A DNA stretch of 42,525 bases from Candidatus Methanoperedenaceae archaeon (GTDB lineage: Archaea; Halobacteriota; Methanosarcinia; Methanosarcinales; Methanoperedenaceae), in the NCBI GenBank assembly GCA_963753595.1, contig CAVWCX010000025.1:1-42525 (forward strand), written 5' to 3'. Of the stretch, positions 35,954-37,051 are shown one piece after another. Position 1 is the stretch's first letter; each line of letters starts with the position of its first letter. Both the position numbers and the translations under genes were made by a program. The notes beneath the pieces are model-generated. The model was not told the DNA's origin, ran no database searches, and saw only the letters and a program-made list of their open reading frames with translations.

Positions 35954-37051
35954 TCAAATTAAACCCGCTATTACATTTTTCCTGTACTCTGAAAACCCGT
36001 CATCCAATATCGCTTCCCTTGCCCCTTTCACTATTGACTGTATAAAATGAAGATTATGTATGGAAGCAAGCCGAAGAGCCAGCAGTTCGGATTCCTTGAA
36101 AAGATGATGCAGGTATGCTTTTGTATAATTCCTGCAGGTGTAGCATCCGCAATTTTCATCCACCGGCGAAAAATCCGTTGAAAATTTTTTCTTAGCAATA
36201 TCAATGCTCCCTTTTGAGGTCATAAGTGTCTGATGCCTTGCATTTCGCGTGGGAAAGGCGCTGTCAAAAATATCGATTCCAGATTCGATCGCATTTAATA
36301 TCTCTATCGGTGAACCCACACCCATAAGGTAGCGCGCCTTATCTTCAGGAACAAGCGGCACGCTAAGCTTTAAAACGTCATTCATGATTTCCTTTGGCTC
36401 ACCAATTGATAAGCCACCTATCCCATAGCCATCAAAATCAAGCTCGATCAGTTCTTCAGCACATCTTCTCCTCAATTCTGCAAATGTCCCTCCCTGAAGT
36501 ATTGCAAAGAAGAGCTGGCCATGGTTTTGGTCCACATTCTTAGCCATCCCCGCCCACTTTATTGTCCTTTCCATTGAAGCTTTCACAACTTTGAACTCAC
36601 TCCCATAAGCAGGGCAATCATCAAGTATCATAGCGACATCGCTTCCAAGCAGCTTCTGATTCGTAAGACAGATTTCAGGAGTATAAGAATATTTTTTCCC
36701 ATCCCGTAAATTCTTATAAATAATTCCCTCATCGTTGATCTTGAATGGAAAATCTTTTCGTATCATCTGGAAACCGCCGCTGTCTGTGAATATACCCCCC
36801 TTCCAATTCATGAATTTATGGAGACCGCCAGCTTTCTGGATAACTTCCATTCCGGGAGCGAGCAAAAGGTGAAAAGCATTGCTTATCAGCACCTCTGTTC
36901 CCATTTCATAAAGCTCATCGGTTGTGATCGTCTTTACCGTCGCTTTTGTGGCAACGGGCATGAATGCAGGAGTTTCAATGATCCCATGGTTTGTCCTGAG
37001 TTTTCCTGCTCTTGCTCCTGTATTTTTATCTGTGTGGATCAGCTGGTACAT
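35954..37051 (-). CDS. tgt: Bacterial-type tRNA-guanine(34) transglycosylase
   Basis: [48 protein letters not shown], and the Zn site CGCYTC...H. 365 aa from ATG 37051, with no archaeal PUA extension. Confidence 0.93.

Follow-up and report, generated by a model that had tools for sequence, protein, structure and literature searches.

Queuosine genes without a recognised preQ1 source in Candidatus Methanoperedens

In textbooks, queuosine belongs to bacteria and eukaryotes, and archaeosine to archaea. The stretch of archaeal DNA analysed here (the window: 42,525 nucleotides of contig CAVWCX010000025.1, assembly GCA_963753595.1) carries tgt, a gene for a bacterial-type tRNA-guanine(34) transglycosylase, next to queA, and thereby raises the question of where such an enzyme would obtain its base, 7-aminomethyl-7-deazaguanine (preQ1). 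The host is Candidatus Methanoperedens, and its assembly (2.89 Mb, 37 contigs, 92.3% complete) is called G000 below. An earlier note on this locus had argued for a preQ1-specific Tgt whose preQ1 source and epoxyqueuosine (oQ) reductase were both unlocated. The missing preQ1 source is real and lineage-wide, and the reductase is encoded elsewhere in the genome; import of preQ1 is tentatively favoured as the answer.

The tgt gene, its pocket and its partner queA

The tgt gene (35954..37051, minus strand) encodes a protein of 365 amino acids. Its assignment is not a chance match, since the protein scores 451.8 bits with the NCBIfam equivalog model of bacterial Tgt, TIGR00430 (curated cut-off 306.75), and 456.3 bits with the Pfam TGT model PF01702 (cut-off 26.3). 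With the archaeal TgtA model TIGR00432 it reaches only 149-157 bits, below the 350-bit cut-off. The best solved relative is the Thermotoga maritima Tgt 2ash (E 1.4e-104), and the Tgt enzymes of Escherichia coli (10fb, E 1.1e-94) and Zymomonas mobilis (1enu/1ozm, E 5.5e-92) also match, as do the human and mouse QTRT1 chains (E ~1e-83). In favour of the start at 37051, the alignment with the family profile begins at residue 2; a longer open reading frame (391 amino acids, start at 37129) overlaps queA. The G+C content of tgt (0.43) and queA (0.42) is near the genome value of 0.405. Among the substrate tRNAs of Tgt, which have a U33-G34-U35 loop, ARAGORN identified genes for tRNA-Asp(GUC), tRNA-Asn(GUU) and tRNA-His(GUG) in G000; no tRNA-Tyr gene was detected in the same run.

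The residues of the active site were matched through the gap-free stretches of a phmmer alignment to the Z. mobilis Tgt chain 1ozm_A (386 amino acids, index equal to residue number). The motifs LDDCP (36611..36625) and GGLSIGE (36398..36418), named by the earlier note, were recovered from the reading frame on the minus strand. In the former, Asp144 corresponds to Z. mobilis Asp156 and Cys146 to Cys158 (codon 36614-36616); in the latter, Leu214, Ser215, Ile216 and Glu218 correspond to Leu231, Ala232, Val233 and Glu235, with the Ile codon at 36404-36406. Further pocket matches are D90 with D102, S91 with S103, F94 with Y106, and M243 with M260. Asp263 (36263..36265, minus strand) corresponds to Asp280, and the zinc site, which lies at 36056..36151 on the same strand, comprises Cys301, Cys303 and Cys306 (36134-36151) and His332 (36056-36058), equivalent to C318, C320, C323 and H349. 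The equivalents of Asp280, Asp102, Asp156 and the zinc ligands are invariant in 91 of 91 aligned sequences. The protein therefore keeps the equivalents of D102, D156, C158, the G229 GGL..GE loop, M260, D280 and the zinc site. In Tgt, Asp280 is the catalytic nucleophile, Asp102 and Asp156 are catalytic residues as well, and Cys318/Cys320/Cys323/His349 form the zinc site; the window protein has the nucleophile, the general-acid Asp and every zinc ligand.

The 91 sequences comprise the window protein, 28 from Methanoperedenaceae, 11 from three other families of the order, two from Woesearchaeota and 49 from bacteria; one locus was left out since its match was shorter than 300 residues. The column of Cys158 holds Cys in 40/40 Methanosarcinales and 49/49 bacterial sequences. 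At position 233, the 42 archaeal sequences all have Ile, and the 49 nearest bacterial ones all have Val. GGLSIGE is also read in the Tgt of T. maritima, while Z. mobilis and E. coli have Val233. The T. maritima control genome carries QueF and QueH in profile searches, so that Ile233 does not conflict with a normal preQ1 pathway. A quick maximum-likelihood tree (unrooted, with bacteria sampled by shared peptide words) places the 42 archaeal Tgt proteins on one side of a branch with a Shimodaira-Hasegawa-like approximate likelihood ratio (SH-aLRT) of 99.

According to Biela 2013, the exchange Cys158Val raises the Km for preQ1 about tenfold, and Val233Gly opens space for queuine. Quaiyum et al. 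(bioRxiv 2023.12.05.570228) describe two signatures, GG[LS][AS]G for Tgt that salvages queuine and GGLAVG for the preQ1 type. The window protein combines Cys at 158 with a branched aliphatic residue other than Gly at 233, and its GGLSIG does not match the queuine signature. The pocket is thus of the preQ1 type by alignment, as the earlier note had held, although a preference for preQ1 over preQ0 (7-cyano-7-deazaguanine) lies beyond the reach of sequence. The Tgt proteins of T. maritima, E. coli and Z. mobilis share the family, length, and catalytic and zinc residues of the window protein, and differ in that the present host is an archaeon and, for Z. mobilis and E. coli, in having Val rather than Ile at 233. 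Queuine-inserting enzymes (eukaryotic QTRT1 and the Chlamydia trachomatis bTGT) have the same fold and catalytic residues. However, they carry Val158 and Gly233 (Biela 2013) or GG[LS][AS]G (bioRxiv 2023.12.05.570228) and have no need of QueA and QueH, in contrast to the Cys, Ile and adjacent queA found here. TgtA, represented by the Pyrococcus horikoshii archaeosine enzyme 1iq8 (TIGR00432), is a distant homologue (E 2e-26) that also uses a 7-deazaguanine base, but it acts on G15 with preQ0 and has extra C-terminal domains, and G000 has a separate TgtA gene on contig C3.

The two Woesearchaeota genomes encode bacterial-type Tgt proteins (L051 6001-7158 and L063 4153-5280) with LDDVP and GGLCIGE, namely Val158, Cys232 and Ile233. 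This pocket differs from the preQ1 and queuine types alike. No queA, queH or transporter gene was found near either of these two tgt loci.

The upstream gene queA (37053..38069, minus strand) encodes the tRNA preQ1(34) S-adenosylmethionine ribosyltransferase-isomerase (338 amino acids), with scores of 415.1 bits for NF001140 (cut-off 324), 378.6 bits for TIGR00113 (cut-off 267.45) and 400.4 bits for PF02547. Its TAA stop codon (37053-37055) is 1 nt from the ATG of tgt (37049-37051), which points to one transcription unit. Of the 29 Methanoperedenaceae loci, 25 have queA adjacent to tgt, and two of the remaining four are cut by contig ends; in three other families (f2, f5 and f6), the same adjacency holds for 10 of 11 loci. 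Since an adjacent queA makes sense only with preQ1 insertion, it supports a preQ1-inserting Tgt. In unsaturated within-family comparisons, the ratio of nonsynonymous to synonymous substitution rates (dN/dS) lies between 0.037 and 0.072 for tgt and between 0.070 and 0.115 for queA; both genes are under strong purifying selection. It is highly probable that the window gene is a functional preQ1-type bacterial Tgt within a queA-tgt operon.

A further gene, encoding an (R)-S-adenosyl-L-methionine hydrolase-like protein of 262-263 amino acids, lies directly upstream of queA in 14 of the 29 Methanoperedenaceae loci (e.g., L030 4099-4887), with a score of 185.8 bits that is below the 470-bit cut-off. 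Because QueA consumes S-adenosylmethionine, this pairing may exceed mere synteny.

The epoxyqueuosine reductase and the QueF gap

It is true, as the earlier note stated, that none of queF, queG and queH is in the window. Its conclusion that the oQ reductase was unlocated did not survive the search of the whole genome, where QueH (PF02677) is encoded on contig C30 (C30:50590-51094). Provided that C30 and the window are contiguous, as implied by their overlap, queH is ~80 kb from tgt. By the earlier note's own standard, the missing-enzyme argument loses its reductase half through QueH. The other reductase, QueG (TIGR00276), was not found in G000, where the best match reached 36.9 bits against a cut-off of 200 bits and was rejected because it covers only the Fe-S stretch (profile positions 122-201). 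The QueF half of the argument stands, as described below.

The QueH of G000 spans two frames, which match model positions 1-131 (138 bits) and 124-175 (57.2 bits) of 175. Relative to its counterparts in the two closest genomes (93% and 90% DNA identity), the gene has one extra base at GGGTC[T]GGAG (G000:C30:50731; L002 position 1515). This base is also missing from five of five bridging contigs of four public runs, contigs that belong to relatives and other strains, and at most 0.27 of the sampled queH-locus words occur in any run. The frameshift is peculiar to this assembly, given that neither the closest genomes nor the bridging contigs have the extra base, and it reflects either a lesion in this strain or an error of the consensus. 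If the insertion is real, the pathway of this strain ends at epoxyqueuosine. In Methanoperedenaceae at large, QueH is present in 51 of 53 genomes, including 34/34 of the high-quality ones, and is intact in the 50 others besides G000.

The distribution in the order was assessed on 201 genomes drawn evenly, of which 66 are tgt-positive and 135 tgt-negative. By family, tgt is found in 47/52 genomes of f1, 16/20 of f2, 0/27 of f3, 0/94 of f4, 1/1 of f5 and 1/6 of f6, and queH in 50/52, 16/20, 0/27, 1/94 (a fragment), 1/1 and 2/6, respectively. The two genes follow the same family pattern. The queuosine module is old, has been inherited within four families of the order, and is under purifying selection.

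QueF, which the earlier note could not locate either, remains missing on this wider scale. It has no Pfam match in G000, and tblastn with a QueF protein from an archaeal contig likewise gave none; the Pfam model gave matches in 7 of 14 control genomes, with both QueF types covered. Matches above the cut-off occur in 1/53 family genomes (none in the other 52) and in 2/201 genomes of the order, both tgt-positive, so that QueF was not found in 64 of the 66 tgt-positive genomes. Weak matches to the QueF model in G007, G046 and G012 were rejected as FolE in queD-queE-folE clusters.

The two genuine QueF genes are on G012:C66 (L155 1-20000) and G084:C258 (L154 1-20000), in two Methanosarcinales genome bins. 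Around both there are genes for FolE, QueD, QueE and QueC, which with QueF make up a complete preQ1 pathway, as well as for replication initiators, a DnaB-like helicase and a DpdA-like transglycosylase (phrog_887), and the same two modules encode a family-A DNA polymerase fused to an N-terminal uracil-DNA glycosylase (UDG) domain. Both loci are virus-like 7-deazaguanine DNA-modification modules and not host tRNA genes. Their likely carriers are archaeal viruses or proviruses that place a preQ1-type 7-deazaguanine into their own DNA.

The normal archaeosine set is present in G000, with TgtA at 638 bits (contig C3), ArcS at 711.5 bits and QueC at 194.2 bits, and the cell therefore makes preQ0. 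The arcS gene is ~1.2 kb past the end of the window, on C4; it was not found within the flanks of the other tgt loci. At four loci from as many Methanoperedens species (L012, L013, L015 and L018), the archaeosine radical-SAM gene RaSEA (TIGR01210, 389.4 bits) was detected. In L013 (2892-5392) it is situated between the gene for GMP synthase subunit B and queH, directly upstream of queH and 30 nt from it, so that genes of the archaeosine and queuosine pathways appear to be in one operon there. These methane-oxidising archaea keep both the queuosine and the archaeosine pathway, under selection, in at least four families, and no gene was found for the step from preQ0 to preQ1 that would link them.

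Part of this picture has been published. Castelle et al. 2021 (PMC8204110) describe QueA, a QueH-like protein and Tgt from 34 archaeal genomes (12 from DPANN), and 'some Euryarchaeota (Methanosarcinales)' are named in the legend of their Figure 4; the presence of the module in archaea, Methanosarcinales included, is therefore already on record. The three genes are co-localised in the DPANN genomes described there, whereas here queH is far from queA-tgt. The terms 'preQ' and 'QueF' do not occur in the main text of PMC8204110, and the precursor gap is not raised there. No publication was found that describes the lack of QueF in archaea with preQ0 synthesis of their own, and a literature search with Methanoperedens and queuosine was empty.

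Candidate sources of preQ1

Since no QueF is found in the lineage outside virus-like elements, preQ1 most likely comes from outside the cell. In the proposed scheme, neighbouring bacteria would release the preQ1 base, which would be taken up by a carrier outside the known families of queuosine-precursor transporters. Tgt would exchange G34 of tRNA-Asp, tRNA-Asn, tRNA-His and tRNA-Tyr for preQ1, QueA would then add the epoxycyclopentanediol, and QueH would reduce epoxyqueuosine to queuosine. The statement as a whole, that of a working preQ1-type Tgt/QueA/QueH module fed through an unrecognised carrier, is given a probability of roughly 0.45. If it holds, queuosine links anaerobic methanotrophs to the bacteria around them as a micronutrient, and a transporter family awaits discovery.

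The scheme has a bacterial precedent. According to Zallot 2017 (PMC5372724), bacteria with tgt, queA and queG/queH but without queF and queDEC are obligate preQ1 salvagers. The present archaeon likewise has tgt, queA and an oQ reductase without queF, and with this gene set preQ1 is the only usable precursor. By analogy, its configuration would be that of a bacterial preQ1 salvager in an organism able to supply preQ0 but not to use it. The bacterial salvagers described there do not synthesise preQ0 and usually have QPTR or QueT/QrtT, in contrast to this archaeon, which makes preQ0 and has neither transporter. In the profile search that the earlier note had called for, QPTR/YhhQ (PF02592) and QueT (PF06177) were each absent from all 53 family genomes. 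ECF-S/QrtT (PF12822), HlyIII (PF03006) and the ureide permease UPS (PF07168), which PMC11130926 lists among validated or candidate precursor carriers, had no match in G000, and neither had the NCS2 and NCS1 nucleobase permeases. The same article describes the known set of queuosine-precursor transporters as incomplete.

Gene neighbourhoods were compared at 31 tgt loci, at 11 loci of f2, f5 and f6, and at 20 queH loci together with G000. Nothing beyond queA and tgt was common across families in these neighbourhoods, which offered no candidate for the missing step, and neither queA-tgt nor queH has a conserved membrane protein next to it. Three neighbours were considered individually and rejected. 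An RDD-domain membrane protein (35407-35952) adjoins tgt in three close relatives only and has no NCBIfam match. The 263-amino-acid gene upstream of queA (14 loci) is the hydrolase-like one described above, below its cut-off, and is implausible as a preQ1 source; the same applies to a 329-amino-acid gene downstream of tgt (10 loci), which is methanogenesis marker 2.

Several points weigh against import. No importer was found among the families searched, the major facilitator superfamily (MFS) and ATP-binding cassette (ABC) transporters being too broad for family models. Moreover, none of the 53 family genomes has a preQ1-I riboswitch, and a conserved membrane neighbour is lacking from the loci compared. 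As the cell already makes preQ0, one endogenous reduction would be simpler than import. Bacterial Tgt, that of E. coli, accepts preQ0 in vitro, and the preQ0 pool of the cell would therefore compete with scarce imported preQ1. The uniform replacement of Val233 by Ile in the 42 archaeal sequences is left without explanation by import, and G000 is only ~92% complete.

The first alternative is that preQ1 is made in the cell from an archaeosine intermediate by an enzyme unrelated to QueF, either through a second nitrile reductase acting on free or tRNA-bound preQ0, or through conversion of 7-carboxy-7-deazaguanine to an aldehyde followed by transamination. The starting material is at hand, given QueC, TgtA and ArcS. 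None of the nine known families of queuosine salvage or nucleobase import searched for (the seven carriers, the salvage enzyme Qng1 and the preQ1-I riboswitch) was found, although the negative for Qng1 in G000 is weak because its model fired in 0 of 14 control genomes. The maintenance of tgt, queA and queH under purifying selection across four families argues for a dependable supply of the precursor, and the position of RaSEA in L013 suggests that the two 7-deazaguanine pathways are organised together there. On the other hand, in-cell synthesis has no candidate gene. Nothing is conserved across families beside queA-tgt or queH that could encode the enzyme, G000 lacks even a weak QueF-like match, and those of its relatives are FolE. 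We know of no nitrile reductase in biology besides QueF, which also counts against this route. Synthesis by an unrecognised preQ0 reductase is rated as unlikely, and import by a carrier is favoured over it. If preQ1 is nevertheless made internally, a new nitrile-reducing or equivalent enzyme exists. In a more specific and still more doubtful version, the anaerobic methanotrophic (ANME-2) archaea and Methanoperedens would feed the 7-deazaguanine of their own archaeosine pathway into the queuosine module, by a non-QueF nitrile reductase or a carboxylate-to-aminomethyl route, and the change from Val233 to Ile throughout the clade would be part of an adaptation to a cytoplasm in which preQ0 is always present.

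A second alternative removes the need for preQ1, in that Tgt would insert mostly preQ0, which is the one 7-deazaguanine base that the cell is known to produce, queuosine would be rare or never formed, and QueA and QueH would be used only when preQ1 is available. The failure to find a preQ1 source and the in vitro use of preQ0 by E. coli Tgt are in line with this, and the Ile233 of 42/42 archaeal and 0/49 of the nearest bacterial sequences could make a slightly tighter pocket that might suit a small linear nitrile. However, GGLSIGE occurs in T. maritima alongside QueF and QueH, and the Cys158 that Biela 2013 associates with affinity for preQ1 is retained. QueA and QueH need preQ1-tRNA and would be useless under this explanation, yet they co-occur with tgt and stay conserved. 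Predominant insertion of preQ0 is therefore considered improbable.

The remaining two possibilities are both very improbable. QueF could be present but missed, in unassembled sequence, on unbinned extrachromosomal elements or as a protein too divergent for the Pfam model; the incompleteness of G000 (92.3%) and the position of both QueF genes on mobile, virus-like contigs, from which it follows that such elements can carry QueF, leave some room for this. In contrast, the QueF of the virus-like contig in G012 is the only one above the cut-off among the 34 family genomes with a completeness of 90% or more (one other match is weak and to FolE), there is a QueF match in 1 of 140 order genomes of that completeness, and the model responded to both QueF types in the controls. 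Salvage of queuine or queuosine, by direct insertion or by conversion of queuine to preQ1 through a QueL-type lyase, exists by either route in bacteria (bioRxiv 2023.12.05.570228; PMC11130926), but direct insertion is at odds with GGLSIG in place of GG[LS][AS]G and would make queA and queH superfluous, while QueT and QPTR are absent from the family and Qng1 was not found in G000, with the weakness of that negative as given above.

The host genome and the window

In a scan of species-representative genomes with the Tgt protein, protein identity was 76-94% for 29 Methanoperedenaceae loci and 61% for one more. The next matches after the family are bacterial (Bacillota, Nitrospirota, Thermodesulfobacteriota and others), at 49% or below, and two from Woesearchaeota at 47%. 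Near queA-tgt, the window encodes an archaeal family-B DNA polymerase and an ACR3 arsenite pump.

A second tgt in the assembly (C4:87184-88263) was rejected as a paralogue, the same locus having been assembled twice from strain variants. Window positions 32304-42525 are the reverse complement of C4:81707-91928 at 99.43% identity, with 58 substitutions and no gaps; the only change in Tgt is K311R, and the substitutions cluster in 32327-35167, which holds polB and the ACR3 gene. At the other end, window positions 1-2476 are identical (100%) to the end of contig C30 (C30:95509-97984). The duplicated window ends look like strain heterogeneity in the bin, by which apparent copy numbers are inflated.

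Two multi-copy elements, presumably insertion sequences, are present in the window. The first (26392-27697) has 11 further copies on other contigs at 99.6-99.8% identity, and the second (28515-30061) has 10 further copies at 99.3-100%. An internal self-match at 18194-18921 (72% identity, 102-base offset) suggests a repeated unit of 34 residues inside a gene.

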